Shown: positions 16,199 through 62,019, counted from the first letter of the stretch. The stretch is DNA of 64,000 nucleotides from Jiangellaceae bacterium (GCA_036374835.1 DASUTB010000005.1:32708-96707), one strand, 5' to 3'. Numbers and translations: made by a program. Notes: generated by a model from the sequence alone, not told the origin.

Positions 16199-16319
16199 GT
16201 GGCGCTCTGTTCGGACACATCGAACCCGGCGGCGCCGGATGAAGCGAGGCGCGTCATGGGTGCACGCTACAACGCAGCCAGCCGTGCGGACAGTGGAGCT
16301 GACCTAACCGGCCGAGCGG

Positions 16320-17714
16320 CTACTTGCCGATGTCCGAGGACGCCGCATCACGGATGTTGGCCACCGCGTCCGCGCGGTCGATGTACCCGTCGGCGACGTT
16401 GCGGTCGCTGGCCTCGGCGACCGCCGAGACGTACGCCCCATGGTCGCGGTAAAGGCCGTCGAGCGTCGCCTCGTCGAACGGGGAATGCTCGCCGAACAGG
16501 AAGCAGAACGTCTCACCGAAGTTCGTCCCGTCATTGAGCGCGATCGGGGCCTCGACTTGGGCCAGACGGATGCCGCCTTGGGCGATCCCGAGCTCATCTC
16601 GGACGATCTGGCCCGCATCATCCAGTGTGATCGGTTCTGCGGTCGGCGGCGCCGCACCACCGCGTGCCCAGTCCGCGATGTGATCGTAGGCCGCGGCAAG
16701 CACATGGTGCACCGGGACCCGACTGAATGGGTTCTGCGCACATTGATACTCAGGCACCCCGGCGGGGTTGTCGCGCTCCTGCAGGGGACGGCGGTACTCC
16801 TGGCCGTTCCACCCCGAGTGCGCCGCGCCGGCGATCTCCCATCGCCGGTAGGTCTCGGTGTCTGGCCGGCGCGCCCCACCGAATCCGATCCAGATGTCGT
16901 TCTCGGAGAGTATGTGGAAGATCGGCTCGTCACGGCGGGTCTGCGGTGCTGGTCCGACGATGAAGGCGTAGCCGTCGAAAACGGCCTCGGACTGGGGCAG
17001 GACCCGGTCGTAGTAGTCGACCATCCGGCTCGCCGACTGCGACGCACCGATCGCGAGCACCGTCTCGACGTCCAACCCTCCCATCGGGTCGTCTCCGGCA
17101 CCGTCGGTGAGCGCTGCGGCAGCCTGGGCGAAGATGTCGTACGAGAGCTCGTCGTTCGTCCACACGCCGCCGTCGGTGACGTCCAGGTCTCCGTATCTCG
17201 CGGGGCTCCAGCCGGTCAGTTGGTTCACGCCCACGCGCTGGGCGGAGATGCCGACCCAGGCGTAGCCGTCGCGAAGCACGTCCTCATAGCCCCACAACGC
17301 GTCCAGGTCGTAGCCGGCGGTGACGTTCTGCCACTCGGCCAGGACCGTACCGTTGAACTGCGCATCCCGTGCCGGACGGCGCACGATGATGCGAGTCCGG
17401 TATGGAACGTCCTCGGCCAGCAACTCACCTGTGCCGGGATCGAAGGCGTTGGCCGAACCGCTGACGTAGAACTCCTCCTCGACGAATCCCGCGCTCTCCA
17501 GATCGACCCACGTCGAGAACCAGGGATACGTGCCCTCGACCTCCGCAGCTGCTCGGTCACCACCGGCGTCGGGCGGAGTGGTCGGGATCGGGCCCTCGAC
17601 AGACGCGGTCGCCACATTTAACTGATCAGCGGACGCGACCGGTGCAACGAACCCGCTCGTGACGAGGACGGCGACCGTCCCAACACTCCCGCCGAAAGTC
17701 CACGTCCGCTTCAT
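16320..17714 (-). CDS. Secreted alpha/beta-hydrolase-like protein
   Basis: Signal peptide after trimming the start to MKRTWTFGGSVGTVAVLVTSGFVAPVASA. Confidence 0.7.
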   Translation of the reverse strand: MKRTWTFGGSVGTVAVLVTSGFVAPVASADQLNVATASVEGPIPTTPPDAGGDRAAAEVEGTYPWFSTWVDLESAGFVEEEFYVSGSANAFDPGTGELLAEDVPYRTRIIVRRPARDAQFNGTVLAEWQNVTAGYDLDALWGYEDVLRDGYAWVGISAQRVGVNQLTGWSPARYGDLDVTDGGVWTNDELSYDIFAQAAAALTDGAGDDPMGGLDVETVLAIGASQSASRMVDYYDRVLPQSEAVFDGYAFIVGPAPQTRRDEPIFHILSENDIWIGFGGARRPDTETYRRWEIAGAAHSGWNGQEYRRPLQERDNPAGVPEYQCAQNPFSRVPVHHVLAAAYDHIADWARGGAAPPTAEPITLDDAGQIVRDELGIAQGGIRLAQVEAPIALNDGTNFGETFCFLFGEHSPFDEATLDGLYRDHGAYVSAVAEASDRNVADGYIDRADAVANIRDAASSDIGK

Positions 17715-44924: not shown

Positions 44925-47054
44925 TTACCCCCTCCGCAGTTGCGTCCGCTCGATCAGTGTCTGGTGCATGTCCGCCAGCGGCCGGCCGTCGGGCGCCATG
45001 TTGACCCGTTGCCAGCTGCCGTCGCGGCGCAGGTGCCAGGACGACGTCTCCGGGCTGAATGCCAGCTCGAAAAGGTCGTCGAGCATCGCGTGCTGCTCCG
45101 GCTGGACGAGGCGGACGAGCACCTCGACCCGCCGGTCCAGATTGCGGTGCATCATGTCGGCCGAGCCGATCCAGAACTCGGGTTCGCCCCCGTTCTCGAA
45201 CGCGTAGATCCGGGAGTGCTCGAGGAACCGCCCGAGCACGCTGCGCACCCTGATGTTCTCCGACATGCCGGTGACGCCCGGACGCAGTGAGCAGATGCCG
45301 CGCACGAGCAGATCCACCGGTACGCCGGCCGTCGAAGCCGCGTAAAGCGCGTCGATCACAGCTTCGTCGACGAGGCTGTTGAGCTTGAACCGGATCCGGG
45401 CGGGCCGTCCTGCCCGGTGGTGCTCGATCTCGCGGCCGATCCGTTCGACGATCCCGGTTCGCAGCGAATGCGGCGCCACCAGGAGCCGGTTGTAGTCGGA
45501 CTCGATGGAATACCCGGACAGCGAGTTGAACAGGTGGTTGACGTCCGCGGCGACGTCCGGATCGGCGGTGAGCAGCCCGAGATCCTCGTAGATGCGTGCC
45601 GTGCGCGGGTGGTAGTTGCCGGTTCCGATGTGGGTGTAGCGCCGGATGCCGCCGGCGGCCTGTGCCTCGTCCCGCACGACCAGGCACAGCTTGCAGTGCG
45701 TCTTGAGCCCGATCATGCCGTACACGACGTGGACGCCCGCTTCCTCCAGCTTGCGTGCCCACGTGATGTTCGCCTGCTCGTCGAAACGGGCCTTGATCTC
45801 GACGAGGGCGAGCACCTGCTTGCCCGCCTCGGCCGCGTCCACGAGGGCGTCCACGATCGGCGAGTCACCGCTCGTCCGGTACAGCGTCTGCTTGATCGCC
45901 AGCACCCTCGGGTCGGCGGCGGCCTGTTCGATGAAGCGCTGGACGCTCGTGGAGAACGAGTCGTACGGATGGTGGGCGAGGATGTCGCTGCGCCGGATCG
46001 CGGCGAACATGTCCGCCGGCGCGGCCGACTCGACGTCCGGCAGATCGCGGTGCGTCGCCGGCAGGAATGGGCGGTATTTGTGCTCGGCCCGGTCGAGCGC
46101 CGCGATGTCGGACAACCCGGACAGGTCGAGTGGCGCGGGAAGCTGGAACGTCTCGGCATCGCTGACGCCCAGCTCGCGCTGCAGCAACGACAGCACGTGC
46201 GGATCGACGGTGTCCTCGACCTCGAGCCGGACGGCCGGCCCGAACCGGCGCCGCGTCAGCTCCCGCTCCATCGCCGTCAGCAGGTTCTCCGCGTCGTCCT
46301 CCTCGACTTCGAGGTCCTCGTTGCGGGTGACCCGGAAGGTGTGGTGCTCGAGGATATCCATGCCGCGGAACAAGGACGACAGGTGCGCGGCGATCACGTC
46401 CTCGAGCGGCACGAACCGCTGCTCGGCGACGGCGAGGAACCGCGGGAAATTCGGCGGCACCTTGACGCGGGCGAAGTGCTCGGTTCCGGTACGCGGGTTG
46501 CGCAGCGCCACGGCCAGGTTCAGCGAGAGGCCGGAGATGTACGGGAACGGGTGGGACGGGTCGACCGCCAGTGGTGTCAGCACGGGAAAGATGCGCTCGC
46601 TGAACATCACCCCGAGGGAGGATCGCTCCGGGTCGTCGAGGTCGTCCCAGCGCACGAGCTCGATTCCCTCTTTGACCAGATTCGGCAGCACGTCACCGTG
46701 GAACGCCTTGGCATGCCTCGCCATCAGGTCGCGGGTGCGGCTGAGGGTGTTTTCGAGCACGTCGCGCGGCAGCAGACCGCTGGCGGCGGGGACGGCGACC
46801 CCGGCCGCGATCCGCCGGCGCAGGCCGGCGACCCGCACCATGTAGAACTCGTCGAGGTTGTCGGCGAAGATGGCGAGGAAGTTGGCTCGTTCGAGCAGCG
46901 GCTGGTCCGGATCCTCGGCAAGGTCGAGCACGCGGGTGTTGAACTCCAGCCAGGACAGCTCGCGGTCGAGGTAGCGCTCCTGCGGCGGCTCGGCCTCCGT
47001 GCGCCCCCGGTCTGCGGCGTGCGCAGACTGGTCGGTGGCCGCCGGCTCGGTCAT
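44925..47054 (-). CDS. ppk: Polyphosphate kinase 1
   Basis: PPK1 N, H, C1 and C2 domains (e.g. [19 protein letters not shown]). Start trimmed to MTEPAATDQ at 47054. Confidence 0.9.
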
Positions 47055-47100
47055 ACCCCTGATAGTGGCATGCAAAGGTGAACAGGAAGTAGCCAATCTC

Positions 47101-47156
47101 CCATGATCATGTTCATTCAACCCTGGATTTCTTGGGTTGATTGAACATGATCATGG
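47101..47156. promoter_or_regulatory. 23-bp near-perfect inverted repeat CCATGATCATGTTCATTCAACCC-N10-GGGTTGATTGAACATGATCATGG between the mshD stop and the ppk start
   Basis: Read directly; one mismatch between the arms. Confidence 0.45.
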
Positions 47157-48090: not shown

Positions 48091-48792
48091 CTACGGGGCC
48101 GTCAGGACCTCCGGCGAGTCCGGGACGAAGCGGTATCCGACGTTGCGCACCGTGCCGATCAGCGCCTCGTACTCCGTGCCTAGCTTCGCGCGCAGCCGCC
48201 GGACGTGGACGTCCACCGTCCGCGTGCCGCCGAAGTAGTCGTAGCCCCAGACTTCCTGAAGCAGCTGAGCCCTGGTGAAAACCCGGCCCGGGTGGGCGGC
48301 GATGTACCGCAGCAGCTCGAACTCCTTATAGGTGAGGTCGAGCAGCCGGCCGGAGATGCGCGCGGTGTAGGTCGCCTCGTCGATCACGAGCTCGCCGGCG
48401 CGGATCTCGTCCGGCGACACCTCGTGGTTGGAGCGAGCTGCCAATTTTCCTGAAGCCAGCCGCAACCGAGCCTCTACCTCGGCCGGGCCGGCGGTGTCGA
48501 GCAGGACGTCGTCCACACCCCACTCCGCGGTGACCGCGGCGAGCCCCCCCTCGGTGACCACGGCGAACAGCGGCACGTCGACACCGGTGGTGCGGATCAG
48601 CTGGGTGAGCCCGCGTCCATGCCCGAGATCGCGACGGGCGTCGACGACGATCGCGTCGCACTCGGGTGTGTCGAGCAGGGCCGAGGCTTCGGCGGGTGCC
48701 ACCCGCACGTCGTGCAGCAGCAGCCCGAGCGCGGGAAGAACCTCGGTGGAGGGTTGCAACGCGTTGGTCATCAGCAGGATGGTCGAGGGCAC
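48091..48792 (-). CDS. glnR: Global nitrogen regulator GlnR (orphan OmpR-family response regulator)
   Basis: Near-collinear with Streptomyces GlnR from memory: [27 protein letters not shown]...[17 protein letters not shown]. Confidence 0.85.
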
Positions 48793-48930: not shown

Positions 48931-49776
48931 ATGGTTCCGTTGCCGACTTGTTGCTCGTTGTGCCGGGTATCGTGCCGGCGGGATGGGAAAATTCACCGTG
49001 TGCCATCGCTGTTCGCCGCCGGGCTCGTAGCGGTACTGGCTCTCGCGTCCGCCGCCGGGAGCCCGCTTCTTGCTGCCGGAGTAGTCCTCGTCCAGGGCAT
49101 CTTCGCGTTCGGCGCGGTCCGGCAGGCAGGTGTACCCGGTGCGGCCGTGGCGACGTGGCTTGCCTTCGGGGTCGGTGCCGGTACGTCGGTCTGGTTCGTC
49201 GTGGACGACATTCCGAAACTCACGCCGATGGCCCGCCTGCTCGCCGCCGGGTTCCTGCTCGCCATCGTGGTTCAGTTGTGGCGCCGGCATGGACGGCCGT
49301 TGCTGACGGCATCGTTGTCTGTCACGGTGACAGCTGTGGTACTGGCCGCTCTCCCTGCCGCGCTCGTCGCGCTTCGCACTGGCGACGCGGGTGCGTACGC
49401 GGTCGGGCTGGGCCTGTTGGGGGTTGCAATCGTCCTGGTGGTGGACGGCGTGGGTGGGCGCTCGGTGCTGGCGCGAATGCTGGCGGTGCTCGCCGCCGCC
49501 GCGGCCGCCGTGATGCTCGTGATGCTGGTCAGCATGGCGGATGTGCCTGAGGTGGGCGCTGTCGTTCTGGCCGCCTTCGGAGCGTTGCTCGCCGTAGCGG
49601 CCCTGTATGCGGTGGATCGGCTGGCCGCAGAGTCATCCACAGGTGAGAAACAGCCGGACGGTGGCGGCGACATCCTGGAGTTGGTGGCGGTCGACATACG
49701 GCCGTTGCAGCTCACCTTGCCGATCATCATGGCGGCGCCGGTGATTTACCTTTTGGGGCGATTGTTGATCGGATGA
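48931..49776 (+). CDS. Hypothetical polytopic membrane protein
   Basis: Hydrophobic, A/L/V-rich with multiple predicted transmembrane segments. Start uncertain. Confidence 0.45.
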   Translation: MVPLPTCCSLCRVSCRRDGKIHRVPSLFAAGLVAVLALASAAGSPLLAAGVVLVQGIFAFGAVRQAGVPGAAVATWLAFGVGAGTSVWFVVDDIPKLTPMARLLAAGFLLAIVVQLWRRHGRPLLTASLSVTVTAVVLAALPAALVALRTGDAGAYAVGLGLLGVAIVLVVDGVGGRSVLARMLAVLAAAAAAVMLVMLVSMADVPEVGAVVLAAFGALLAVAALYAVDRLAAESSTGEKQPDGGGDILELVAVDIRPLQLTLPIIMAAPVIYLLGRLLIG

Positions 49777-50357
49777 TCGGGCGGCGGGATGAACCATCGG
49801 CCTGGAGGAGACGTTCCTCCGGTATGCCGACGTCCGTCGCTGATGAGGAGCTCGTCCGGACGCTGTATGACGAGCATGCCGGCGCGCTACTCGGCTATGT
49901 GACCCGGCTCCTCGGCGGTGACCGGCAGCGTGCTGAGGATGTCGTCCAGGAGACCTTGTTCCGCGCGTGGCGGCACCCGGATGCGCTCACTCCCGAGCGG
50001 GGTTCGGTGCGCCCGTGGTTGTGGACCGTCGCGCGACGGGTCGTGCTGGACGGCGAGCGCGCCCGCCGCGCCCGGCCGCGCGAGGTGACCGACGCGACGG
50101 TCCCGGCGGCGCTCGTCGACGATGGTGTCGAAGCGGCGTTGTCGGCGCAGGTCGTGGCCGAGGCTCTGCGGGCGCTGACGTCGGAGCATCGCCAAGCTTT
50201 GATCGAGACGTACTACCGCGGCCGGAGCGTCGCCGAGGCCGCCGAGGTGATGGGAGTACCGGAAGGAACCGTGAAATCGCGCACGTACTACGCGCTGCGG
50301 AACCTGCGCTCCGCGCTGGAAGAGCGCGGCTTCGGTGCATCGGAGGCAGGCTCATGA
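49773..50357 (+). CDS. ECF (sigma-70 family) RNA polymerase sigma factor
   Basis: Regions 2 and 4. Alternative start at ATG 49824. Confidence 0.85.
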   Translation: MIGRRDEPSAWRRRSSGMPTSVADEELVRTLYDEHAGALLGYVTRLLGGDRQRAEDVVQETLFRAWRHPDALTPERGSVRPWLWTVARRVVLDGERARRARPREVTDATVPAALVDDGVEAALSAQVVAEALRALTSEHRQALIETYYRGRSVAEAAEVMGVPEGTVKSRTYYALRNLRSALEERGFGASEAGS

Positions 50358-51052
50358 GCTCGCCGCAGTGCCGCGCGATCCGGCTCGAACTCGGCGCGTA
50401 CGTGCTCGGGCTACTCGATGCCGGCGACGAGCAGCGGGTCCGCGAACACCTCGTCCGGTGCGACGAATGCGCGGTCGAAGCGGCGTCGTTGCGCGAGACG
50501 AGTAAGGTGTTGGCGCTCACCGATGTGGGCCTGGTGGAACAGCCGGCCGAGCCGTCACCTGAGGTACTGCCCAAGTTGCTCCAGCGGATCGCCGCGGCGC
50601 GCCGGCGCCGCCGGATCGCTGGGGTCGTCGCGGCGGCCGCCGCTGCTGCGGTCGTGACGGTGGGCGGCATCGCGTTCTTGGACGCGGCCGACGACTCGCC
50701 CGGCGCGAGCGTTGAAGCCGGCGACGTGAGCACCGAGCCGGCGGTGACGACGTCCGGCCGGGACGGCACCGTTGCGGTCGAGGTGGACGTCTGGGATCGT
50801 GACTGGGGCTCGAAGCTCACGGTCGACGTCTCCGGCGTTCCGGCCGGCTACCGCTGCAGCCTCATCGCGATCGGCGGCGACGGCCGGCGCGAGACCGCGG
50901 CGACATGGGTCGTGCCGAGCGCCGGATACAACGAGGGCGGCGGCGGTCTGACAATGGACGGCGCACACGGTCTGCGGTACTGGGAAGTCGACCGGTACGA
51001 GGTAGTCACGTCCGACGGTGAGCTGCTCGTCACGCTCCCGCTTGTCGATTGA
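50354..51052 (+). CDS. Zinc-dependent anti-sigma factor (HxxxCxxC), membrane-spanning
   Basis: HLVRCDECAV motif and a transmembrane segment. Start overlaps the sigma-factor stop (ATGA). Stop codon lies inside box copy 3. Confidence 0.75.
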   Translation: MSSPQCRAIRLELGAYVLGLLDAGDEQRVREHLVRCDECAVEAASLRETSKVLALTDVGLVEQPAEPSPEVLPKLLQRIAAARRRRRIAGVVAAAAAAAVVTVGGIAFLDAADDSPGASVEAGDVSTEPAVTTSGRDGTVAVEVDVWDRDWGSKLTVDVSGVPAGYRCSLIAIGGDGRRETAATWVVPSAGYNEGGGGLTMDGAHGLRYWEVDRYEVVTSDGELLVTLPLVD

Positions 51053-51177: not shown

Positions 51178-51657
51178 GTGGAGGGTTTGCTCGTCGCCGC
51201 GGCGGCATTGCTGGGCGCCACCGGGTTCGGGCTGTGGCGGCGCCGGGTGGACGGCCGCCTTCGCCAGGTCGCCCATAGTCACGGCCTAGCGCTCCGGAGC
51301 GGTGCCAGTACGCCGGAACGGGACACCGTCCCTACGGCGGACGCGAGCGTGATCACCCCGTCCGAGCTTGGCCAGGACCTCGGGCGGGTCGCGACGTTCG
51401 TCTCGTTCTCCACCGCCTTTTGCCAGCCGTGCCGGGCGAACCGCCAGGTGTTGGGCCACCTTGCGACGACCGCGGACGGCGTGGCGCATGTCGAGATCGA
51501 CGCCGAATCCCGGCTCGACCTTGTCCGTGCCCTCGGGGTGACGCGCACGCCGACCACATTCGTGCTCGACGCATCGGGCGCCGTTCGGCAGCGGGCGACC
51601 GGTGTTCTGCGGCTCGACGACGCTCGGACCGCGATCCGACAGGTGACCGATGCATGA
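51178..51657 (+). CDS. Thioredoxin-family protein (TlpA/ThiX-like), membrane anchored
   Basis: CxxC (FCQPC) active site. GTG start. Confidence 0.65.
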   Translation: MEGLLVAAAALLGATGFGLWRRRVDGRLRQVAHSHGLALRSGASTPERDTVPTADASVITPSELGQDLGRVATFVSFSTAFCQPCRANRQVLGHLATTADGVAHVEIDAESRLDLVRALGVTRTPTTFVLDASGAVRQRATGVLRLDDARTAIRQVTDA

Positions 51658-51897
51658 GATATGCGTCTCGCGATACGGACTTCTCGTGACTTTGTCGCCA
51701 TAAGGTCGTAACCTCACTGGCATGTTCCACACAGGGCTGACCAAGCGGCGCCACATCGACTACGGTCGCGCCGCCACCATGCTCTGTTCGATGCCCTGAC
51801 CGGGCAGTTCTCCCGTCCCGAGCGCCACTGGCGCTGCTGCGGTCCGGTGTAGCCAACTGCCCAGACGTCGTTCATCCGTCCACGTCAGGGAGTCGTC

Positions 51898-52359
51898 ATG
51901 ATCGATCCACGCGGCCCACGTTTCGCCGCAGCCATCACCACCGCCGTTCTCGCCGCTGTACTTGTCACCGGCAACGCCGTGCTGCTCGCCGTTCAGGTCG
52001 GCGTGTTCGCGGTGGCAACCGGGTTCGGGCTGCGCGCTGCGCCTTATGGTCTTGCCTACGCGAGACTCATCCGGCCTCGCCTCGCGCCACCGAACGAACT
52101 CGAGGACGAGCGCCCGCCCCGGTTCGCCCAGGCTGTCGGACTCGGATTCGGCACCGTCGGATTGCTCGCGCTGCTCGCCGGTTGGACAGCCGTCTTCTAC
52201 GTGGCCGTCGCCGCCGCACTCGCCGCGGCCTTCTTGAACGCGGCATTCGGGTTCTGCCTCGGATGTGAGATCTACCTGCTCATCCACCGATTCAGGGCCG
52301 GCGCACCGTCACAAACACAGAGAGCACCGTCACAACCACAGGAGGTCACCACACCATGA
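51898..52359 (+). CDS. DUF4395-like membrane protein
   Basis: 153 aa, four predicted transmembrane segments. Stop overlaps the rhodanese start. Confidence 0.55.
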   Translation: MIDPRGPRFAAAITTAVLAAVLVTGNAVLLAVQVGVFAVATGFGLRAAPYGLAYARLIRPRLAPPNELEDERPPRFAQAVGLGFGTVGLLALLAGWTAVFYVAVAAALAAAFLNAAFGFCLGCEIYLLIHRFRAGAPSQTQRAPSQPQEVTTP

Positions 52360-53207
52360 GCAAACGAGACCAGGTTCTCGTCTCGGCGGATTGGGTCGCC
52401 GAGCACCTCGACGATCCGAATGTCGTACTCGTCGAGGTCGATGAGGACACCGCCGCCTACGACAAGAACCATATCCGCGGCGCGGTCCGGCTGGACTGGA
52501 AGGCCGATCTGCAGGACCCGGTCCGCCGCGACTTCGTGAACAGGGAGCAGTTCGAGGAGCTGCTGTCCGAGCGAGGTATCGGCAACGACGACACGGTGAT
52601 CCTCTACGGGGGCAACAACAACTGGTTCGCCGCGTACGCGTACTGGTACTTCAAGCTCTACGGCCACAACGACGTCCGGCTGCTCGACGGCGGGCGCAAG
52701 AAGTGGGAGCTCGAGAGTCGCGAACTCGTCACCGAGGCGCCGCAGCGCGCCCGCACGTCGTACACCGCGTCGGGGCCGGACCTGTCGATCCGCGCGTTCC
52801 GCGACGAGGTCGTCGACGCCATCGGCACCAATAACCTGGTGGACGTCCGTTCGCCCGACGAGTACGCCGGGCGGCTGCTCGCGCCGGCGCACCTGCCGCA
52901 GGAGCAGTCGCAGCGGCCGGGCCACATCCCGACCGCGGCGAACATTCCGTGGAGCAAGGCGGCCAACGACGACGGCACCTTCCGCTCCGAGGACGAGCTG
53001 CGCCGGCTCTACGGGGACGCCGGCGTCGACTTCGGCAAGGACACCATCGCCTACTGCCGCATCGGCGAGCGCTCGGCGCACACGTGGTTCGTGCTGCACG
53101 AGCTGCTCGGCGTCCAGAACGTGAAGAACTACGACGGCTCGTGGACCGAGTACGGCTCGCTGGTCGGCGTGCCGGTGGCAATCGGCGACGACCCGGGGTC
53201 GGCATGA
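52356..53207 (+). CDS. Thiosulfate sulfurtransferase (tandem rhodanese, CysA/SseA-like)
   Basis: Catalytic CRIGERS loop. Confidence 0.9.
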   Translation: MSKRDQVLVSADWVAEHLDDPNVVLVEVDEDTAAYDKNHIRGAVRLDWKADLQDPVRRDFVNREQFEELLSERGIGNDDTVILYGGNNNWFAAYAYWYFKLYGHNDVRLLDGGRKKWELESRELVTEAPQRARTSYTASGPDLSIRAFRDEVVDAIGTNNLVDVRSPDEYAGRLLAPAHLPQEQSQRPGHIPTAANIPWSKAANDDGTFRSEDELRRLYGDAGVDFGKDTIAYCRIGERSAHTWFVLHELLGVQNVKNYDGSWTEYGSLVGVPVAIGDDPGSA

Positions 53208-53503
53208 GCTGCGCAGCGCCGGAGGGGGGCGCGTCTCTCGAAGGAGTCGATGTCGGATCCGAGGCGGTCATCCAGGGTGTCGTGAAGGCCGGTGGCGGCC
53301 CGGTCGGCGGTGCGTACGTCCGGCTGCTGGACCGCAGCGGCGAGTTCACCGCGGAGGTGCCGACCGGCGACGGCGGCGAGTTCCGCTTCTTCGCCGCACC
53401 GGGCGAGTGGACGCTGCGCACGCTCGCTCCAGGCATCGAGCCTGTCGACCAGCCGGTGCAGGCGTCGCTCGGCGCCGTGGCTGACGTCGAGATCACCGTC
53501 TGA
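53204..53503 (+). CDS. DUF1416 (SseC-like) protein
   Basis: Translationally coupled to the rhodanese (ATGA). Mtb-like cysA2-sseC2 pairing. Confidence 0.7.
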   Translation: MSCAAPEGGASLEGVDVGSEAVIQGVVKAGGGPVGGAYVRLLDRSGEFTAEVPTGDGGEFRFFAAPGEWTLRTLAPGIEPVDQPVQASLGAVADVEITV

Positions 53504-53518
53504 ATGACCACGTTAAGC
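53502..53518 (+). repeat. Box copy 4: GAATGACCACGTTAAGC, fused to the SseC stop (cTGAATGAcc), followed by a 17-bp hairpin
   Basis: Read directly. Mini-ORF MTTLSR. Flanking inverted repeats at 53518-53534 and 53556-53572. Confidence 0.7.
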
Positions 53519-53618
53519 CGGTGATTCCCTGCTTCACGCTCGCTACAGGACGTGTAAAGCAGGGAATCACCGCGCATCGGCCGCCCGGCCACAAGCGCCG
53601 GCACGTAGTCTGACGTCC

Positions 53619-54266
53619 GTGTTGGATCGATGGGTCGAGGACGATCGTCCCGCACTTCCTCTTGTCGTGGCCGTGCTGACCATGTGCGCGATCGCCGGCT
53701 TCGTTTTCGGTGGCGTCCTTGCCTCGCTTCCGGCATCCGGCGGCGGCTCCGCGGATCCGAGCCAGAGCCCGACGGCGACTGAACCGGTCATGGTCGAGGT
53801 CGCCGGTGTGGAGGCTTCGTGCCAGCGCGAGCCCGCACAGGACCATGCCGGCGAGACGGTCGAGTACCTGCCGGAGTTCGTGCACGATGGTGATTCGCAG
53901 ACGGCGTGGCAGTGCCGCGGTGACGGTGCCGGCGAGACGCTGACGTTCGCCCTCGACGAGCCGGCGCCGATCGCCGAGCTCGGCATCGTCCCCGGCTACG
54001 CGAAGGTCGATCCGACCGAGGACACGGACTGGTACCCGCGCTATCGGCGCCTCACCGAGGTCCGCTGGCATTTCGACGAAGGTGATCCGGTCAGCCATGT
54101 GCTCGACCCCGATCCGGAACTACGCGAGCCGCAGTTCATGACGCTGGACGAGGCACGTACAACGTCGACGCTCACGATGGAGATCGTCAGCAGTGAGCTC
54201 GGAACGGACGACTGGCGGAACATGGCCGTCACCGAGGTCGTGATCATGGCATGTGACCGTTGCTAG
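53619..54266 (+). CDS. Hypothetical membrane-anchored protein
   Basis: GTG start; N-terminal transmembrane segment then a soluble domain. Confidence 0.5.
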   Translation: MLDRWVEDDRPALPLVVAVLTMCAIAGFVFGGVLASLPASGGGSADPSQSPTATEPVMVEVAGVEASCQREPAQDHAGETVEYLPEFVHDGDSQTAWQCRGDGAGETLTFALDEPAPIAELGIVPGYAKVDPTEDTDWYPRYRRLTEVRWHFDEGDPVSHVLDPDPELREPQFMTLDEARTTSTLTMEIVSSELGTDDWRNMAVTEVVIMACDRC

Positions 54267-54321
54267 GTGCTCACCGGCGATGCTGGACGGGTAGGTAAGG
54301 GCGGTTGGCTGGGGAGCGGGC

Positions 54322-54338
54322 GCTTTACGTGATCATTC
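54322..54338 (-). repeat. Box copy 5: GAATGATCACGTAAAGC
   Basis: Read directly. Extended similarity to copy 6 (…AGCGCC…CCCCAGCCAA…). Confidence 0.65.
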
Positions 54339-54410
54339 CAGGGTAAGTGTCTTCACCGGATGCCGATCTTTCGTTAGGGTACGCACCAGTAGCGGCGGGA
54401 AGGCACACGG

Positions 54411-55049
54411 GTGGCGGAGTTCCTGGAAACGGCGATCAGCTTTCCGGTCGCCGTGTTCGGCGTGTTGCTCGTCATCGTCATCGGCTACTGGCTGATCGTG
54501 CTGCTCGGTGTCGTCGGGGAGGGGCTGTTCGACGGCGACGTGCCCGACAGCGACGTCGGCATGGCCGGGATGCTCGGTGCCGTCGGACTCGGCGGCGTGC
54601 CGATCGCCGCCGTCCTGTCGTTGTGGATCGCGTTCGGCTGGTTCGGCAGCTTCATCGGGGTCGTGTTTCTCGGCGACGTCGACGCTCTGGACGAGTTCGC
54701 CGAACCGTTGACGGCCGCCGGTGTGCTGGTGCTCGCCATCGTCGCCGGCTATGCGGCGACCTACCTGCTCGTCATCCCACTGCGCCGGCTCATGCCACGA
54801 CCCGATCCACCGCCGCAGCGCAGCGACCTGGTGGGACGCACCTGCGTCGTCCGGACGACCACCGTGGATCACCAACACGGGCAAGCCGAGGTCACCGCCG
54901 AGGATGGCTCATCGGCCGTTATCCAGGTGCGGCAGACCGGTGGTGAGCCGCTTCATGCCGGCAGCAGTGCGCTCATCTTCGACTACGACGCTGACGGCGA
55001 GTACTTCTGGATCACCGTGGCGCCTTCCCATCTACACCCCGAGACGTAA
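54411..55049 (+). CDS. NfeD-family membrane protein (C-terminal OB-fold)
   Basis: GTG start. Transmembrane N-terminus and the conserved partner position upstream of an SPFH protein. Confidence 0.75.
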   Translation: MAEFLETAISFPVAVFGVLLVIVIGYWLIVLLGVVGEGLFDGDVPDSDVGMAGMLGAVGLGGVPIAAVLSLWIAFGWFGSFIGVVFLGDVDALDEFAEPLTAAGVLVLAIVAGYAATYLLVIPLRRLMPRPDPPPQRSDLVGRTCVVRTTTVDHQHGQAEVTAEDGSSAVIQVRQTGGEPLHAGSSALIFDYDADGEYFWITVAPSHLHPET

Positions 55050-55057
55050 GGAAGACC

Positions 55058-56980
55058 ATGCAATCGACTCTTACCGCGGCGGGCTTGCTGGTCGCCGTCG
55101 TCGTCCTCATTCTGCTCGGCCTGGTGCTCATCGTCACCAGGCTGTACAAGAAGGTGGAGCAGGGCCGTGCCTTGATCATTTCCAAGATCCGCGGCGTATC
55201 CGTCACGTTCACCGGCGCCATCGTGCTGCCGGTGTTCCACAAGGCCGAGTACATGGACATCTCGGTCAAGACCATCGACATCGAGCGGACCGGTCACGAG
55301 GGCCTGATCTGCAAGGACAACATCCGCGCCGATATCCGCATCACATTCTTCGTCCGAGTGAACAAGACCGTCGAGGACGTCGTCAAGGTGGCCCAGGCGA
55401 TCGGCACGCACCGGGCCAGCGACCAGGAGACGCTGCAGGAGCTGTTCAACGCCAAGTTCTCCGAAGCCCTCAAGACCGTCGGTAAGCAGCTGGACTTCGT
55501 CGACCTCTACACCAAACGCGACGAGTTCCGGGACTGGATCATCCGGGTCATCGGTACCGACCTGAACGGTTACAGCCTCGAGGATGCCGCGATCGACTAC
55601 CTCGAGCAGACGCCGATGTCCCGGCTGGATCCGGCCAACATCCTGGACGCGCAGGGCATCCGCAAGATCACCGAGCTGACCGCGCTCGAAGCGATCCGGA
55701 CCAACGACTACCAGCGCAACAAGGAGAAGGAAGTCACCCGGCAGGACGTCGAAGCACGCGAGACGATACTCGAACTCGAGCGGCAGCAGGCCGATGCGGA
55801 GATCAAGCAGCGCCGAGAGGTCGAGACGATGCGGGCCCGCGAGGAAGCCGAGATCGAAAAGGTCCAGGCCGACGAGCGGCTCAAGGCGCAGGGCGCGGCC
55901 ATCCGCACCGAGGAGCAGCTCGGCATCCAGCGGGAGAACCAGCAGCGCGAGATCGCGGTGGCCGAGCTCAACAAGCAGCGCGTCGTGGCCATCGAGACCG
56001 AGAAGATCGAGAAGGATCGCCAGCTCGAGGTCGTCAACCGCGATCGAGAGACGGCGCTGGCGACCATCGAGAAGGACAAAGAGGTCGAGACCGAGAAGCG
56101 CTCGGTGGCCGAGATCGTCCGCGAGCGCGTCGCGGTCGACAAGACCGTCGCGGAGCAGGAGGAGAACATCAAACGGGTCCGCACCGTCGAGGAGGCGGAG
56201 CGGAACCGCGAGGCCACGGTGATCGCCGCCGAGGCGCAGGCGCAGGAGCAGCTCGTCAAAGACATCAAGGCGGCCGAGGCGGCCGAGCAGGCGGCCCAGC
56301 ACCGCGCTCGCGAGGAGCTGACGCTCGCCGAGGCGCGGCAGCAGGCCTCGGATCTGGACGCCCGCGCCAAGATCCGGCTGGCCGAAGGTGTTCAGGCCGA
56401 GGTGGCCGCGGCCGGCCTGGCCGAGTCCCAGGTGATCACCGAGAAGGCGGCCGCGATGGCGGCACTGGACGAGGCGAGCCGCTCGCACGAGGAATACCGG
56501 CTCCGGCTCGATATGGAAAAGGAGCTCCGGCTGGCCGGGCTGGACGTGCACCGCCAGGTCGCCGAGGCGCAGGCGTCGGTCATCGCCGCCGGGCTGGAGA
56601 ACGCGGACATCGACATCGTGGGCGGCGAGAGTGTGTTCTTCGACCGGCTGGTCGGCTCGATCACGCTCGGTAAGAGCCTGGACGGGCTCGTCGAAGGCTC
56701 GGACGTCGCGCAGCGGCTCGCCGGTTCGTGGCTCAACGGCGACTCCGACTTCGTCGAGGACATCCGCCACATGCTCGGTTCGGTCGGCACCGACGACGTC
56801 AAGAACATGACCGTCTCGGCACTGCTGCTCAAACTCATGAAGGATGGCGGTCCGGGCGCCGACCAGCTTCAGCGCCTGTTGGACGCCGCACGTGAGCACG
56901 GCGTCGCCGACCAGAAGATCGCGGCGCTGGCCAATCCGGCGGACGACGGACCGTCCGAGCCGGCCACGGCGAAGACGTGA
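55058..56980 (+). CDS. Flotillin-family SPFH/Band-7 protein (YqiK/FloT-like) with long EA-rich coiled coil
   Basis: N-terminal transmembrane segment plus SPFH domain. 640 aa. Confidence 0.85.
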   Translation: MQSTLTAAGLLVAVVVLILLGLVLIVTRLYKKVEQGRALIISKIRGVSVTFTGAIVLPVFHKAEYMDISVKTIDIERTGHEGLICKDNIRADIRITFFVRVNKTVEDVVKVAQAIGTHRASDQETLQELFNAKFSEALKTVGKQLDFVDLYTKRDEFRDWIIRVIGTDLNGYSLEDAAIDYLEQTPMSRLDPANILDAQGIRKITELTALEAIRTNDYQRNKEKEVTRQDVEARETILELERQQADAEIKQRREVETMRAREEAEIEKVQADERLKAQGAAIRTEEQLGIQRENQQREIAVAELNKQRVVAIETEKIEKDRQLEVVNRDRETALATIEKDKEVETEKRSVAEIVRERVAVDKTVAEQEENIKRVRTVEEAERNREATVIAAEAQAQEQLVKDIKAAEAAEQAAQHRAREELTLAEARQQASDLDARAKIRLAEGVQAEVAAAGLAESQVITEKAAAMAALDEASRSHEEYRLRLDMEKELRLAGLDVHRQVAEAQASVIAAGLENADIDIVGGESVFFDRLVGSITLGKSLDGLVEGSDVAQRLAGSWLNGDSDFVEDIRHMLGSVGTDDVKNMTVSALLLKLMKDGGPGADQLQRLLDAAREHGVADQKIAALANPADDGPSEPATAKT

Positions 56981-59900
56981 CCGCCACGCTCGACGCCGGC
57001 ACATATGAGCTGCTCCGGACCCGGCTGGCCGAGCATGCGGGCGAGTTGGCCAGACGGGCCGAACAGCTCAATCAGCGGCGGATCGAGGTGTTCGGTGGCA
57101 CCGAGCTGACGCTGGTCGGCACCGAGCGGATCCGCACCGAGAACAACTGCGTGCCGCGCGACATCGTGCCGCTCGGTGGCGACCGAGATCTCCTTCTGCT
57201 CGGCTACAACGTGTTCATCGGGCTCAAGCCGGAGACGACCGTCGGCGACGTCTTCGCGGTGCACGAGTTCCGCCGCGGCGACGATGGCGGGTTCAGCTTC
57301 GAGCCGGTCGGGACGGACGTCCTGCTCGACGAACAGTTCGAGCGGGACTTCGCCGAGCTCTACCGGTACTACCGCGACACCCGGCTGATGCAGTTGCGCC
57401 GAACCGGGCCATCGGTGCTCGCGGTGTTCCAGACCGGTCCCAACGACGACGACATCCGGGTGTTGCGCTGGCGCATCGGCGAGAACGGCGCCCTGACCTA
57501 CGTCGACAACCGCGGCGAGCGGGAGAACGTCCTGCCGCCCTCGCACGACTTCGAGTGGACCGAGACGACCCGCGAGGATCACGTTCCCGGCAGGTACCCG
57601 CACATCTCGATCGAGGACGAGGTGTTCGTCGACACGCTCGGCGGCGATCTCACGGTCTCGGTCGAGAACAACACCGAAACCGGTGAGGGCATCTACCGCG
57701 AGCCGGTGACCGAGCCGCTGCAGAGCCTGGCCGACGCCGACGTCCACTACGCCCGGGTCGGCCCGCTCATCCTGCTCCGGATCCGCCCCTACAACGAGAC
57801 CGAGTGGCGGCACCTCGTCTTCAACACCCGCACCCACGGCGTCGTCCGGCTCGACGGCATCGGGCAGGCCTGCCAACGGCTACCCGAGGATCACGGCATC
57901 ATCTTCCCTGGCGGCTACTACCTGGCCACCGGGGTCTCCCGCACGTTCGACACGGACGTCACCAACCTGGAGTTCCAGCGGTTGATCCGGTCGCCGAACG
58001 GCGAGGACGTGCTCTACGTCTTCCACGCTCGCGCCGAGGGCCGATCGCTACTGCTGCCGTACAACGTGATCCGCAAACAGGTCGACACACCCATCTACTG
58101 CCACGGGTACTCGGTCTTCGGCGACGGCACCCTTGTGGTCTTCCGGGCCACGTCCGACGAGCCGACCCGGGTCCATCCCATGCAGGTGTGGCGGTCGCCA
58201 TACATGTCGGAAAGCTACGCCGCCAGCCAGCCTGCCGGGACCGGTCCGCTCGAGCGCGTCGGCAACGCGGACCTGGTGCGCGGTATCTCGGACTGCCTGT
58301 CGGTGACGCGCATGCTGGACGAGATGGCGCCGTCCACGCCGGTCTTCGAAGGGATCATCGCGGCCTGCCGCAGGGTGGCCGATCAGTTCCACTGGCTCGA
58401 CGACCCCGAGCTGTTCTCGCTCGGTGAGCCGCTGCGGGAGGTACGGTCCGCCGCCGAGCAGGTGCTCGGTGAGCTCGAGACCGTCGAGGCGCTGACCGCC
58501 CAGGCCGCGACCGCGCTGGACGAGGCCGAGGCGGACATCGCGTCGCTGGTCCGACGCGTTCGGGGCGAGGCGCCCCGGGCAGCGTCGGCCTGGGTCAGTC
58601 AGCTGGCCGAGCTACACCGCGCCGAGGGCCATCTTGTGACGCTGCGCGAGCTGCGCTACGCCGACGTCGAACGCATCGACGAGCTGGCCGCATCGCTGGA
58701 GGCCGACGTCGCCGATGCGGCGAAGCGGGCCGTCACATTCCTGCAGCGCGACGACGCGTTCGCCGATTACCACAGGGAGGTCGAACGGCTCGCCGGCGCG
58801 GCGACGGAAATCCGTACCGTCGCCGAGGCCGCGCCCGTCGACGAAGAGCTCACCGAACAGGCCGAAGCGCTGGCGATCGTCACCGAAGTGGTCGGCACCC
58901 TGGACATCGCCGACGCCACCGTGCGCACGGCCATCCTCGGCCGCATCAGCGAAGTGTTGGCCGGCGTCAATCGGACGCGAGCGGTGCTCGCGGCCCGGCG
59001 TCGTGAGTTGCTCGAGGCCGAGAATCGCGCGGCGTTCGCCGCCGAATTCGCACTGCTCGGGCAGGCCGTGTCGAGCGGGCTGGCACTGGCCGACACCCCG
59101 GAGGCGTGCGATGAGCAGCTCGGCAGGCTGCTGCTGACGCTGGAGAACCTCGAAGCGCGATTCGGTGAGTTCGACGACTTCATGGCCGACCTGGAGGCCA
59201 AGCGGGAGGACGTCTACGAGGCGTTCTCGGCGCGCAAGCAGGCGCTGCTGGACGAACGCGCCCGGCGCGCGGGGCGACTCGCCGAATCGGCCGACCGGAT
59301 CCTCGGCAGCGTCCGGCGTCGAGTCGGGTCGCTCGGGTCGCTGGACGAAGTGAACACCTACTTCGCCTCTGATCCGATGGTGGCCAAGCTGCGGTCGCTG
59401 GCCGACGACCTGCGTGAACTCGGCGACCTGGTCCGGGCCGAGGAGCTCGACGGACGGATTAAGGCGGCTCGGCAGGAAGCGGCACGGGCGCTACGCGACC
59501 AGCTCGACCTTTACGAAGGCAACACGATCCGGCTCGGCCGGCACCGGTTCGCCGTCCACTCGGAGCCGATCGAGCTGACGATGGTGCCCGGCGTGCGACC
59601 GGCCGCTGGCGCGTCCGCTCCCACTGATCACACGGGCGGCTCCGCCGCGGTTGACGCCGTGATGAACTTCGTGCTGACCGGCACCGATTACCGCGCGCCG
59701 GTGCACGACGAGGCGTTCGCGGCGACGCGGCGGTTCTGGGACCAGCTGCTGGTCTCCGAGTCACCCGACGTGTATCGCGGCGAGTATCTCGCGTCGACCA
59801 TCCTGGCCGCCGCGAGCGAGGGCCGGGACGGGCTGTCTCTCGACGGCCTGCATGAGGCGGCGGTCGTGGACGGCGGCCTGCTCGACGTGGTGCGCAGCGT

Positions 59901-62019
59901 CGCGGCCGACCGCTACGACGAGGGCTATGAACGCGGCGTGCACGACGAGGACGCCACCGCGATCCTCGAGGCGCTGCTGCGCCTGCACGCCGGCGCGGGC
60001 GTGCTGCGGTATCCGCCGGACGTGCGCGCGGCGGTGCAGCTGTACTGGGCGTTCGGCGCCTCGGACGACGACAAGGCGTCCTGGGTCGCCCGCGTGGGCT
60101 CGCTCGCGCGGGCGCGCGCCGCGTTCGGGCATGCCAGCGGGATCGCCGAGCTGTGCGCTGAGGCCGGTGGTGCGGTGGCGTCATTCCTCGGCGGAAACCT
60201 GGGTGAATCCACTGTCGCTATAGGTGCAGCAGATTCACCCGGGATCGTTCCGCGCCTGCCGTCTCTTACCGGATCGCGGGCGTCGCTCGCCGGTGAGTAT
60301 CTCTTCGAGGAATTGGCGAGCCAGCCGGACGGGTTCGTGACCGGTGCGGCGGCCAAGCGCCTGCTGCGGCGGTTCCAGCGCAAGCTCGGGGGTGCCCGGT
60401 CGGTATCGCGGCGGGCGTTGGACGGTGAGCTGCGCGCGCTCAGCGACGATCTGGCGGCCCGCCATCAGCTCCTCACGGCGTGGCTGAGCTCCTATGTCGC
60501 GGCTGCGGACGGCGCGGAACCGGCCGCCGAGGCGGACCTGGCCGAGGCGGTGACGCTGGAGCTGTGCGGCCGCGAGGTGACGCACTACGATTCGTCGGCC
60601 GAGCTGGAGGCGACGGTCGAAGGCTTGCTCGGCACGCACCGGCGAATCGCGGACCGCACCATGACGCTACGGCTGGACGAGACGTTGGCCCGCACGCGTG
60701 AGTTCCGGATCGAGCGGGTGCCCGCCTACCGCGACTACCAGCGGCAGCGAAACGCCCTTGTCGAGGCCGAGCGGTCGCGCCTACGTGTGGGCGAGTACCA
60801 GCCCGGTGTGCTCGCCGGCTTCGTCCGCAACCAGCTGCTTGACCAGGTCTATCTGCCGCTGATCGGGGACAACCTGGCCAAGCAGCTCGGCACCGCCGGC
60901 GACGACAAGCGCACCGATCTGTCCGGTCTGCTGATGCTGATCTCACCGCCGGGCTACGGCAAGACCACACTGATGGAGTACCTGGCGAACCGGCTCGGAC
61001 TGGTTTTCGTCAAGGTCAACGGGCCGGCGCTCGGGCATGGTGTCACGTCCATCGATCCGGCGGACGCGCCGAACGCCACCGCGCGCCAGGAAGTCGAGAA
61101 GATCTCCTTCGCGCTGGAGATGGGCAACAACGTGCTGCTGTATCTGGACGACATCCAGCACACGTCGCCGGAGCTGCTGCAGAAGTTCATCTCGTTGTGC
61201 GACGCGCAACGCCGGATGGAGGGCGTCTGGGACGGCCGGACGCGCACCTACGACCTGCGGGGCAAGCGGTTCGCCGTATGCATGGCCGGCAATCCGTACA
61301 CCGGGGCCGGACGGCGGTTCCGGGTGCCGGACATGCTGGCCAACCGGGCCGACGTGTGGAACCTGGGCGACGTGCTGGCGGGGCGGGACGAGCTGTTCGC
61401 GCTGAGCTACATCGAGAACTCTCTGACGTCCAACGCGGTGCTGGCGCCGCTCGCCGGACGGTCGGTCGCCGACCTCAAGCTGCTGCTGCGGCTGGCCCGC
61501 GGCGACGACTCCGCAAGCCCGGACCAGTTGGAGCACAGCTACCCGCCTGCCGAACTCGACCAGGTGCTCGCGGTCCTCGGCAAACTGACCCATGTGCAGC
61601 AGGTGGTGCTGGCGGTGAACCAGGCCTACATCGCGTCCGCCGCGCAGGCGGACGCCTCCCGCACCGAGCCGCCGTTCCTGCTGCAGGGTTCGTACCGCAA
61701 CATGAACCGGCTCGCCGAGCGCATCGTGCCGGCCATGAACGACGACGAACTGGCCGCGCTGATCGACGACCACTACGCCGGGGAGGCCCAGACGCTGACG
61801 TCCGGCGCGGAGGCGAACATCCTGAAGCTGGCCGAGCTACGTGGCCGCCTCACGCCGGAGCAAGCTGAACGCTGGGCTGAGGTAAAGGCCGGCTATCTGC
61901 GGGAGAGGGCGCTCGGCGGTGCCGAGGACGACCCGATCACCCGTGCCGTCGGTGCCGTCGGCCTGCTCGCCGACCAGGTCGCCGCCGTCGAATCCGCCAT
62001 CCGTTCCCACTCAGAATGA
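56977..62019 (+). CDS. Giant (1680 aa) uncharacterised protein with C-terminal AAA_5 (MoxR/dynein-like) ATPase module
   Basis: Start overlaps the flotillin stop (GTGA). Walker A LISPPGYGKTTL, Walker B VLLYLDDIQH, sensor-1-like CMAGNP. N-terminal ~450 aa and the central helical region have no obvious family. Confidence 0.8.
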   Translation: MTATLDAGTYELLRTRLAEHAGELARRAEQLNQRRIEVFGGTELTLVGTERIRTENNCVPRDIVPLGGDRDLLLLGYNVFIGLKPETTVGDVFAVHEFRRGDDGGFSFEPVGTDVLLDEQFERDFAELYRYYRDTRLMQLRRTGPSVLAVFQTGPNDDDIRVLRWRIGENGALTYVDNRGERENVLPPSHDFEWTETTREDHVPGRYPHISIEDEVFVDTLGGDLTVSVENNTETGEGIYREPVTEPLQSLADADVHYARVGPLILLRIRPYNETEWRHLVFNTRTHGVVRLDGIGQACQRLPEDHGIIFPGGYYLATGVSRTFDTDVTNLEFQRLIRSPNGEDVLYVFHARAEGRSLLLPYNVIRKQVDTPIYCHGYSVFGDGTLVVFRATSDEPTRVHPMQVWRSPYMSESYAASQPAGTGPLERVGNADLVRGISDCLSVTRMLDEMAPSTPVFEGIIAACRRVADQFHWLDDPELFSLGEPLREVRSAAEQVLGELETVEALTAQAATALDEAEADIASLVRRVRGEAPRAASAWVSQLAELHRAEGHLVTLRELRYADVERIDELAASLEADVADAAKRAVTFLQRDDAFADYHREVERLAGAATEIRTVAEAAPVDEELTEQAEALAIVTEVVGTLDIADATVRTAILGRISEVLAGVNRTRAVLAARRRELLEAENRAAFAAEFALLGQAVSSGLALADTPEACDEQLGRLLLTLENLEARFGEFDDFMADLEAKREDVYEAFSARKQALLDERARRAGRLAESADRILGSVRRRVGSLGSLDEVNTYFASDPMVAKLRSLADDLRELGDLVRAEELDGRIKAARQEAARALRDQLDLYEGNTIRLGRHRFAVHSEPIELTMVPGVRPAAGASAPTDHTGGSAAVDAVMNFVLTGTDYRAPVHDEAFAATRRFWDQLLVSESPDVYRGEYLASTILAAASEGRDGLSLDGLHEAAVVDGGLLDVVRSVAADRYDEGYERGVHDEDATAILEALLRLHAGAGVLRYPPDVRAAVQLYWAFGASDDDKASWVARVGSLARARAAFGHASGIAELCAEAGGAVASFLGGNLGESTVAIGAADSPGIVPRLPSLTGSRASLAGEYLFEELASQPDGFVTGAAAKRLLRRFQRKLGGARSVSRRALDGELRALSDDLAARHQLLTAWLSSYVAAADGAEPAAEADLAEAVTLELCGREVTHYDSSAELEATVEGLLGTHRRIADRTMTLRLDETLARTREFRIERVPAYRDYQRQRNALVEAERSRLRVGEYQPGVLAGFVRNQLLDQVYLPLIGDNLAKQLGTAGDDKRTDLSGLLMLISPPGYGKTTLMEYLANRLGLVFVKVNGPALGHGVTSIDPADAPNATARQEVEKISFALEMGNNVLLYLDDIQHTSPELLQKFISLCDAQRRMEGVWDGRTRTYDLRGKRFAVCMAGNPYTGAGRRFRVPDMLANRADVWNLGDVLAGRDELFALSYIENSLTSNAVLAPLAGRSVADLKLLLRLARGDDSASPDQLEHSYPPAELDQVLAVLGKLTHVQQVVLAVNQAYIASAAQADASRTEPPFLLQGSYRNMNRLAERIVPAMNDDELAALIDDHYAGEAQTLTSGAEANILKLAELRGRLTPEQAERWAEVKAGYLRERALGGAEDDPITRAVGAVGLLADQVAAVESAIRSHSE

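Follow-up and report, generated by a model that had tools for sequence, protein, structure and literature searches.

A stretch of 64,000 nucleotides from a Jiangellaceae bacterium (GCA_036374835.1, DASUTB010000005.1:32708-96707), referred to below as the window, carries at positions 54411-62019 three consecutive open reading frames on the + strand, which encode proteins of 212, then 640, then 1680 amino acids (genes 1, 2 and 3). Here, we report that these genes encode a small membrane protein accepted as YqiJ/NfeD2-type, a YqiK-type flotillin and a cytoplasmic multidomain protein with a C-terminal MoxR-type AAA+ ATPase, that the trio is conserved in at least four bacterial phyla, and that its three genes are genetically inseparable in every locus sampled. 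An earlier note on the window, made from the sequence alone, did not recognise a described system here, which was mistaken: Ravi et al. 2024 describe the operon both in a long, PspA-linked form and in an abbreviated form, and the window locus is the latter. The operon type is, thus, already published from comparative genomics and uncharacterised experimentally, and the locus is not a new discovery. We tentatively read the trio as a self-contained, cytoplasm-facing membrane module of the phage-shock and envelope-stress network, in which an ATP-driven remodelling protein may be docked on a flotillin assembly.

Conservation of the trio and its link to the phage-shock system

Using patterns from an actinomycete query, we retrieved 80 actinomycete loci with gene 3, 77 of which include enough upstream DNA for the gene order to be followed. 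Homologues of genes 1 and 2 lie directly upstream of gene 3, in the same order, in all 77, and the four-nucleotide overlap between genes 2 and 3 is the commonest junction among them. The gene 3 proteins of the actinomycete families are 62-71% identical to the window protein. The trio is also present in each of the nine loci that make up our small sample of distant relatives (Gammaproteobacteria, Bacteroidota, Deinococcota and metagenomes), namely Vibrio sp. D431a, Flammeovirga yaeyamensis, Pseudomonas fluorescens SBW25 plasmid pQBR103, a Deinococcus actinosclerus megaplasmid, Proteus mirabilis, Vibrio campbellii and three metagenome contigs, the last with gene 3 at 32-41% identity. Sizes are similar throughout these loci, with a protein of ~190-217 amino acids followed by a flotillin of ~640-730 amino acids and a DUF3686 protein of 1,600-1,790 amino acids. 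The linkage of gene 3 to a flotillin, which the earlier note had seen in the window, is kept across the Actinomycetes and beyond.

No further gene travels with the trio to a comparable extent. Clustering of the flanking open reading frames revealed no family in more than 12 of the 77 loci; 10 of 12 tested window neighbours had no match in any locus, the response regulator was matched in 6 loci and the sigma factor in 1, and Pfam searches of the neighbours of the distant loci returned unrelated proteins and no conserved accessory gene. No homologue occurred in 50,697 phage records. Among 72,556 plasmid records, 13 had one; most of these are megaplasmids, chromids or mislabelled chromosomes, and the 13 matches overstate plasmid carriage because several of the records are evidently chromosomes filed as plasmids. 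The 'plasmid' records with the trio include NZ_OL790811.1, NZ_OL790812.1 and NZ_LT559118.1, and several measure 4-12 Mb (Proteus mirabilis 4.08 Mb, Nonomuraea gerenzanensis 11.85 Mb).

Ravi et al. 2024 (mSystems 9:e00847-23; PMC11237479) described the same order of genes for a YqiJ/YuaF protein, a band-7/flotillin protein and a protein combining a beta-propeller, a coiled coil and an AAA+ ATPase, in an operon that is sometimes extended with CesT/Tir-PspA, and their Table S3 holds an identical gene order in Dokdonia. Their 'abbreviated operons', in which the flotillin and YqiJ/YuaF genes stand alone or together with the ATPase gene, are distributed more widely and may cooperate with PspA encoded elsewhere. 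The window trio corresponds to these parts one by one (YqiJ/YuaF protein with three transmembrane (TM) segments; band-7, coiled coil and flotillin; beta-propeller, coiled coil and AAA+ ATPase), and, unlike their long forms, it is without the CesT/Tir-PspA dyad and the phospholipase D gene. Their description is in silico only, and the ATPase was neither classed as MoxR-type nor tied to Pfam DUF3686 or DUF7902.

The trio is recurrently joined to PspA operons in our own sample. On plasmid pQBR103 (NC_009444.1, 85112-97641), genes for PspA/IM30, a rhomboid protease, DUF2491, DUF350 and DUF1190 proteins and a glutathionylspermidine synthase are followed by the trio on the same strand, a cluster that we take to resemble the yjfJKLMC operon of E. 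coli, with its phage-shock (PSP) and polyamine genes. An MvaT/MvaU H-NS-like gene stands after the trio on the opposite strand of this plasmid. On one of the metagenome contigs, the trio is followed by a DUF2170 (CesT/Tir) gene and then by pspA.

Beyond Ravi et al., literature searches returned no paper on DUF3686 or PF12458, none pairing 'flotillin' with 'DNA repair ATPase' and none pairing MoxR with flotillin. The 2009 survey of SPFH proteins (Hinderhofer et al. 2009, PMC2636767) covers SPFH2-NfeD2 operons with no ATPase.

Architecture of the three proteins and integrity of their reading frames

The tight coupling of the three genes that the earlier note had pointed out was verified in the sequence, including the coordinates, the 8-nucleotide gap, the GTGA overlap and the 1680-amino-acid reading frame. 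Gene 1 (54411..55049) ends with TAA at 55049 and is separated by a spacer of 8 nucleotides, GGAAGACC (55050..55057), from the ATG start of gene 2 (55058..56980); together, the stop codon and the spacer read TAAGGAAG, a Shine-Dalgarno-like stretch immediately 5' of the ATG that resembles a ribosome-binding site. The 3' end of gene 2 reads ...ACG TGA, and gene 3 (56977..62019) begins at the GTG within the GTGA overlap (56977..56980), which suggests translational coupling of the two genes. Upstream of gene 1 lies a 144-nucleotide intergenic leader (54267..54410) with a Shine-Dalgarno-like GGGAAGG stretch ~8 nucleotides 5' of the GTG start. A sigma-70 consensus scan of 53400-62700 gave no promoter, the consensus being uninformative for a high-GC actinomycete, and a terminator scan of the operon region was likewise uninformative. 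The G+C content of the operon is similar to that of the remaining window.

The gene 1 product is identical to HEX6194558.1 (locus tag VFZ37_01520) from a Jiangellaceae metagenome-assembled genome (MAG), and that of gene 2 to the product of locus tag VFZ37_01525 in the same MAG. The exact 1680-amino-acid product of gene 3 has no public record, the gene being truncated by the contig end in the short assemblies with the locus. Window positions 53127-60803 are colinear with two independent metagenome assemblies, with 19 and 9 mismatches in a position-by-position comparison, and indels are excluded over this span because that gap-free comparison shows mismatches only. The earlier note had considered that the large reading frame might be a fusion or frameshift artefact of two known genes. 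This is ruled out, given the two colinear assemblies and a full-length architecture that is kept across phyla.

Gene 1 has three hydrophobic segments (residues 2-41, 49-90 and 96-125) and a conserved, beta-rich C-terminal domain of ~70 amino acids, which the family alignment places at residues 139-205 (54825..55025). The domain carries the motif G-R-x-C-V-I-R-T ... F-G-Q-A-E-V ... D-G-S-S ... V-R-Q ... A-G-S-x-A-L-I ... G-E-F-F-W-V, with invariant or near-invariant columns at G142, C145, R148, G157, Q158, A159, E160, G166, R174, G184 and F199, and is presumed to be an NfeD-like OB fold by analogy with the YqiJ/YuaF relationship (PMC2636767). In hhalign, gene 1 aligned to E. coli YqiJ with a probability of 66% (E = 6e-5, 137 collinear columns). 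The window protein itself had no Pfam NfeD or YqiJ match, and neither it nor its family profile matched the solved-structure (PDB) sequence library. Within the gene 1 family, the Flammeovirga orthologue matches Pfam YqiJ_N (E = 6e-6), the only one of 35 members to do so, and the Proteus orthologue fits the family profile with a probability of 99.6%. Orthologues in public databases are named DUF1449, YqiJ family or OB-fold-containing protein, and gene 1 adjoins the SPFH gene directly upstream in all loci with enough upstream DNA. We accept gene 1 as a YqiJ/NfeD2-type (DUF1449) partner of the flotillin, as the earlier note had proposed, with the qualification that the relationship is weakly detectable and that the window copy itself offers little direct evidence in its sequence.

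The assignment of gene 2 to the flotillins, also made in that note, is supported. Over 423 amino acids the protein shares 30% identity with E. coli YqiK (BLASTP, E = 3e-43), hhalign aligns the two with a probability of 99.8% over profile columns 5-468, and homologues go by the names flotillin family, SPFH domain-containing and YqiK, many of them with PF01145. The window protein alone scores below detection by Pfam Band_7 and matched nothing in the solved-structure sequence library. It comprises an N-terminal TM segment (residues 1-33), an SPFH domain, a long coiled coil rich in E, A, R and K, of which ~205-500 aligns to the coiled coil of YqiK, and a family-specific C-terminal tail. In the alignment of orthologues this tail spans residues ~515-640 (56600..56977) and reads I-V-G-G-x-S-V-F-F-D-R-L-V ... 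G-K-S-V-D-G-F-V ... N-L-T-V-S-A-L-L. The ~115 residues past the strand equivalent to 'IIQVDG' of YqiK are kept as far as the Proteus mirabilis orthologue, whereas the YqiK tail after 'IIQVDG' differs, being Gly-rich and unaligned to that of gene 2. Searched alone against Pfam at E <= 10, the tail gave no match. As for the coiled coil, its length varies within the family (640-731 amino acids for the whole protein): the window flotillin and its closest relative (89% identity) are without 29 to 58 coiled-coil residues, at alignment columns ~482-561, that are present in 13 other aligned actinomycete orthologues. If the flotillin assembly is cage-like, such variation would alter the height of the cage.

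Gene 3 belongs to a large family of long proteins. More than 5,500 homologues were found; among the matches listed (120), all are full length (1599-1756 amino acids, 66-79% identity) and come from actinomycetes or unnamed metagenome contigs, with 119 of the 120 covering at least 94% of the query. An exhaustive HMMER search of 1.84 billion representatives with residues 1-480 returned 779 clusters at 50% identity. Long members of the DUF3686 type measure ~1,500-2,000 amino acids, with the domain nearly always N-terminal, and short ones look like fragments. Family members occur in Vibrio, Flammeovirga, Pseudomonas (pQBR103), Proteus, Deinococcus, Hymenobacter, Halomonas and Photobacterium and in an unclassified gammaproteobacterial MAG.

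The N-terminal ~450 amino acids of gene 3, to which the earlier note could assign no family, are Pfam DUF3686 (residues 23-472, 57043..58392, E = 1e-213), an uncharacterised family. This part consists of a long helix (7-39), a divergent beta-propeller-like domain with strands from ~45 to 406, and a helical cap (412-475). It is followed by a helical middle region (~480-850, 58414..59526), which is helix-favouring by composition, being rich in A, E, L, R, K and Q and poor in Pro and Gly, and which contains Pfam DUF7902 at residues 593-677 (58753-59007, E = 8e-29); Ravi et al. 2024 (PMC11237479) termed this type of region a coiled coil. The next ~375 residues (~855-1230, 59539..60666), delimited by the conservation profile, match no family and have conserved patches at E928, G987, H989 and D992 and the motif RYxEGYxRGVHDxDA. 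When fragments 481-855, 855-1230 and 1501-1680 were searched against Pfam at E <= 10, DUF7902 was the sole match. Within this region, residues 871-900 (59587-59676) and 1051-1110 (60127-60306) are poorly conserved and rich in indels, gaps making up 65% and 22-48% of the family alignment there. Both stretches adjoin better-conserved blocks of the region and probably serve as linkers or surface loops.

The ATPase core occupies residues ~1280-1500 (60814..61476), with a Pfam AAA_5/AAA match at ~1319-1442, and is closest in fold to the MoxR-family members CbbQ and NorQ. The earlier note had called a MoxR/dynein-type AAA_5 domain, correctly, and both of the motifs that it had named are present, Walker A SPPGYGKTT at residues 1323-1331 (60943-60969) and Walker B LYLDDIQH at 1388-1395 (61138-61161). 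A beta-hairpin precedes sensor 1 (N1439), and R1457 is the arginine-finger candidate in the signature NP-x4-G-x2-F-x2-P-x5-R (61282-61353). Across 63 family members, compared down to 29% identity, conservation within the protein peaks in the catalytic region, with S1323-T1330 (including GKT at 1328-1330), D1391, D1392, Q1394, H1395, N1439 and R1457 invariant, and Walker B reads DD, not DE, in all of them. The AAA+ lid and C-terminal helical region, delimited by conservation (1501-1680, 61477..62016), holds the invariant block R1562 ... P1565 ... Q-G-S-Y-R-x-M (1570-1576). No hydrophobic segment was found in gene 3, and its matches in the solved-structure sequence library were confined to the P-loop. 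Classification as a Cdc48-like classical AAA+ protein was considered and rejected. The motor is MoxR-like but is not that of a canonical MoxR-VWA system, because no VWA/MIDAS domain was detected in genes 1-3 (Pfam) or in conserved neighbours.

Proposed mechanism and alternative explanations

Cooperation between an SPFH cage and an AAA+ machine has a precedent in HflK/C and FtsH. This precedent, the conserved linkage of the three genes, the protein identities, the PSP link and the topology of the trio, with TM segments in genes 1 and 2 and none in gene 3, speak for the proposal made here. In the mechanism that we propose, the flotillin would be anchored through its single N-terminal TM segment and assemble through its SPFH and coiled-coil parts on the inner face of the membrane, where the gene 1 protein with its three TM segments would join it. 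The soluble gene 3 ATPase, presumably hexameric like other MoxR-type proteins, would be recruited to this assembly by its N-terminal helix, beta-propeller and long helical arm, and the best candidate for its dock is the family-specific C-terminal tail of the flotillin. ATP hydrolysis may then remodel the flotillin assembly, or client membrane proteins held by it, through assembly and disassembly, opening, or loading and release of clients, in a manner analogous to FtsH in HflK/C cages or to Vps4 on polymers of the ESCRT-III/PspA type. The physical docking, the hexamer, the nature of the substrate and a part for the trio in the stress response are all inferred, and the earlier note's picture of an ATP-driven machine scaffolded on flotillin is a reasonable inference.

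Several points weigh against this mechanism. The case is made from sequence and comparative genomics for every member of the trio. MoxR ATPases normally pair with a VWA/MIDAS partner, and the operon has none. Hydrolysis by gene 3 may be slow or regulatory because Walker B is DD in all members compared, and the region at 855-1230, which has no assigned fold, could have an unrelated activity. The PSP link is seen directly in a minority of loci, and tblastn searches, which used a single query and had low sensitivity, found neither PspA nor DUF2170 in the window or within 10 kb of the 80 actinomycete loci. Lastly, E. coli yqiJK has no third gene, which means that flotillins do not generally need this ATPase.

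A more specific version, which we regard as doubtful, holds that the DUF3686 protein is a dedicated ATP-driven factor for assembly and disassembly of a bacterial flotillin cage, with the propeller reading the C-terminal tail of the flotillin. If true, it would be the first known energy-dependent regulator of a flotillin-type SPFH scaffold, comparable to Vps4 for ESCRT-III, and flotillin dynamics in these bacteria would be active, regulated and tied to the PspA membrane-repair response.

Alternatively, the flotillin could be a platform only, with the ATPase acting as a client-directed MoxR chaperone that matures a membrane complex or loads a cofactor into it and with the propeller replacing the VWA adaptor, on the model of CbbQ/CbbO for Rubisco and NorQ/NorD for nitric oxide reductase. 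CbbQ and NorQ are the nearest structural relatives of the gene 3 ATPase, the propeller and the 855-1230 region could bind a client, and an assembly of membrane-linked complexes is what Ravi et al. 2024 (PMC11237479) favour for these operons. However, neither the flanks of the 77 loci nor the distant neighbours hold a conserved candidate client gene beside the trio, the VWA/MIDAS domain of such systems was not detected, and only the flotillin and YqiJ-like genes accompany gene 3 invariably, which leaves us considering a chaperone of this kind unlikely.

The two remaining explanations fare worse. Large NTPases with repeat sensor domains are frequent in defence systems, and an anti-phage or conflict system, with the ATPase as the sensor of infection and the flotillin/YqiJ pair disturbing the membrane, would suit the differing genomic contexts of the cassette across genera and the proximity of the Vibrio sp. 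D431a trio to genes for TelA, a ClpX-like ATPase and a Dam-type methylase. The earlier note had mentioned a defence role as unsupported, and we agree: the sole PADLOC match (PADLOC-DB 2.0), to IetA, covers 29 P-loop residues at E = 0.003 and is not meaningful, and Pfam detected no nuclease, toxin or other effector domain. Together with the phage and plasmid counts given above, the housekeeping neighbours in the window (Ppk, GlnR, ECF sigma factor, rhodanese, YqeY) and the strong conservation across actinomycete families, this makes defence an improbable function. A role in DNA repair is suggested chiefly by database names, as the named homologues among the matches listed are mostly called 'DNA repair ATPase' (NCBI/PGAP) and the Pfam text for DUF3686 reads 'ATPase involved in DNA repair'; weak RuvB matches (E ~1e-3 over ~40 residues) point the same way. 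These matches are, however, limited to the Walker A region, where Cdc48 and Rix7 score equally, and the fold of gene 3 is nearer MoxR than RuvB. The literature and domain searches and the gene neighbourhoods yielded no supporting paper, no DNA-binding or nuclease domain (Pfam) and no conserved repair gene nearby, and gene 3 is always linked to two membrane-protein genes. The earlier note had allowed that gene 3 might prove to be a known DNA-repair ATPase free of flotillin linkage in other genomes; it is instead an uncharacterised DUF protein, flotillin-linked in every sampled locus. A repair function is hardly credible on this record, and the name 'DNA repair ATPase' is probably a propagated misannotation.

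SPFH deletions, single or multiple, often have little or no phenotype (PMC13086221; PMC2636767), and both the function of bacterial flotillins and the control of their assemblies are still unsettled. A flotillin subfamily tied to a MoxR-type ATPase of 1,600-1,900 amino acids provides an enzymatic handle on the purpose of the scaffold, and tractable hosts of the trio include Proteus mirabilis, Vibrio campbellii, Pseudomonas fluorescens SBW25 (pQBR103) and many relatives of Streptomyces and Micromonospora. Experimental follow-up is worthwhile because of this handle and because the name 'DNA repair ATPase' looks unfounded.

Surroundings of the locus and comparison with known systems

The neighbourhood of the operon in the window is of housekeeping type, with genes for Ppk, GNAT, GlnR, an ECF sigma factor, thioredoxin, DUF4395, rhodanese, an F5/8-type-C membrane protein, YqeY and a metallophosphoesterase. 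The polyphosphate kinase gene lies at 44925-47120, and an orphan GlnR-type response regulator (48091-48792, - strand; PF21695 GlnR_1st and Trans_reg_C) is flanked on one side by an MshD-like tandem GNAT gene and on the other by a pair encoding an ECF sigma factor and a zinc-finger anti-sigma factor (49773-51052). A sulfur/redox cluster follows on the + strand (51178-53503), comprising thioredoxin-like, DUF4395, tandem-rhodanese sulfurtransferase and DUF1416 proteins (PF07210 in locus L093), an arrangement that is presumably typical of actinomycete core genomes. Directly 5' of the operon, the gene at 53619-54266 (+ strand) encodes a membrane-anchored protein of 215 amino acids (194 in other assemblies) with a NADase_transloc / F5/8 type C (discoidin-like) domain (PF25302, E = 5e-10). 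The gene is found in synteny in the two other assemblies of the organism, and the other 80 loci lack it. Among the distant loci, that of Vibrio sp. D431a (L081/L082) has the genes for TelA (toxic anion resistance), a ClpX-like AAA+ protein and a Dam-type (MethyltransfD12) methylase at 13502-16754, just 3' of the trio on the opposite strand, and four genes without a Pfam match before gene 1 on the same strand; these surroundings could be an extended or an unrelated stress/defence neighbourhood.

With regard to known systems, the yqiJ-yqiK operon of E. coli and yuaF-floT of B. subtilis (PMC2636767) share the gene order of the window, starting from the small membrane protein. The homology of gene 2 to YqiK spans the TM segment, the SPFH domain and the coiled coil, and gene 1 resembles YqiJ, but the E. 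coli operon is without a third gene, and the window flotillin is the longer protein and ends in a conserved tail of another kind. Compared with the MoxR family (CbbQ, NorQ, RavA), whose members measure ~250-500 amino acids and have a VWA partner, the MoxR-type module of the window makes up the C-terminal fifth of a protein of 1680 amino acids that has a beta-propeller, no VWA partner and DD, not DE, in Walker B.

The trio also shares with HflK/C-FtsH the combination of an SPFH membrane scaffold and an AAA+ ATPase, and to our knowledge this is the only well-studied precedent for such a pairing. The HflK/C-FtsH pairing also appears in the abstract of PMC13220708. FtsH is a membrane-anchored AAA+ protease of the classical clade and HflK/C faces the periplasm, whereas gene 3 is soluble, of MoxR type and without a protease domain, and the window flotillin is predicted to face the cytoplasm. 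What the two systems have in common is a working principle, not family membership.

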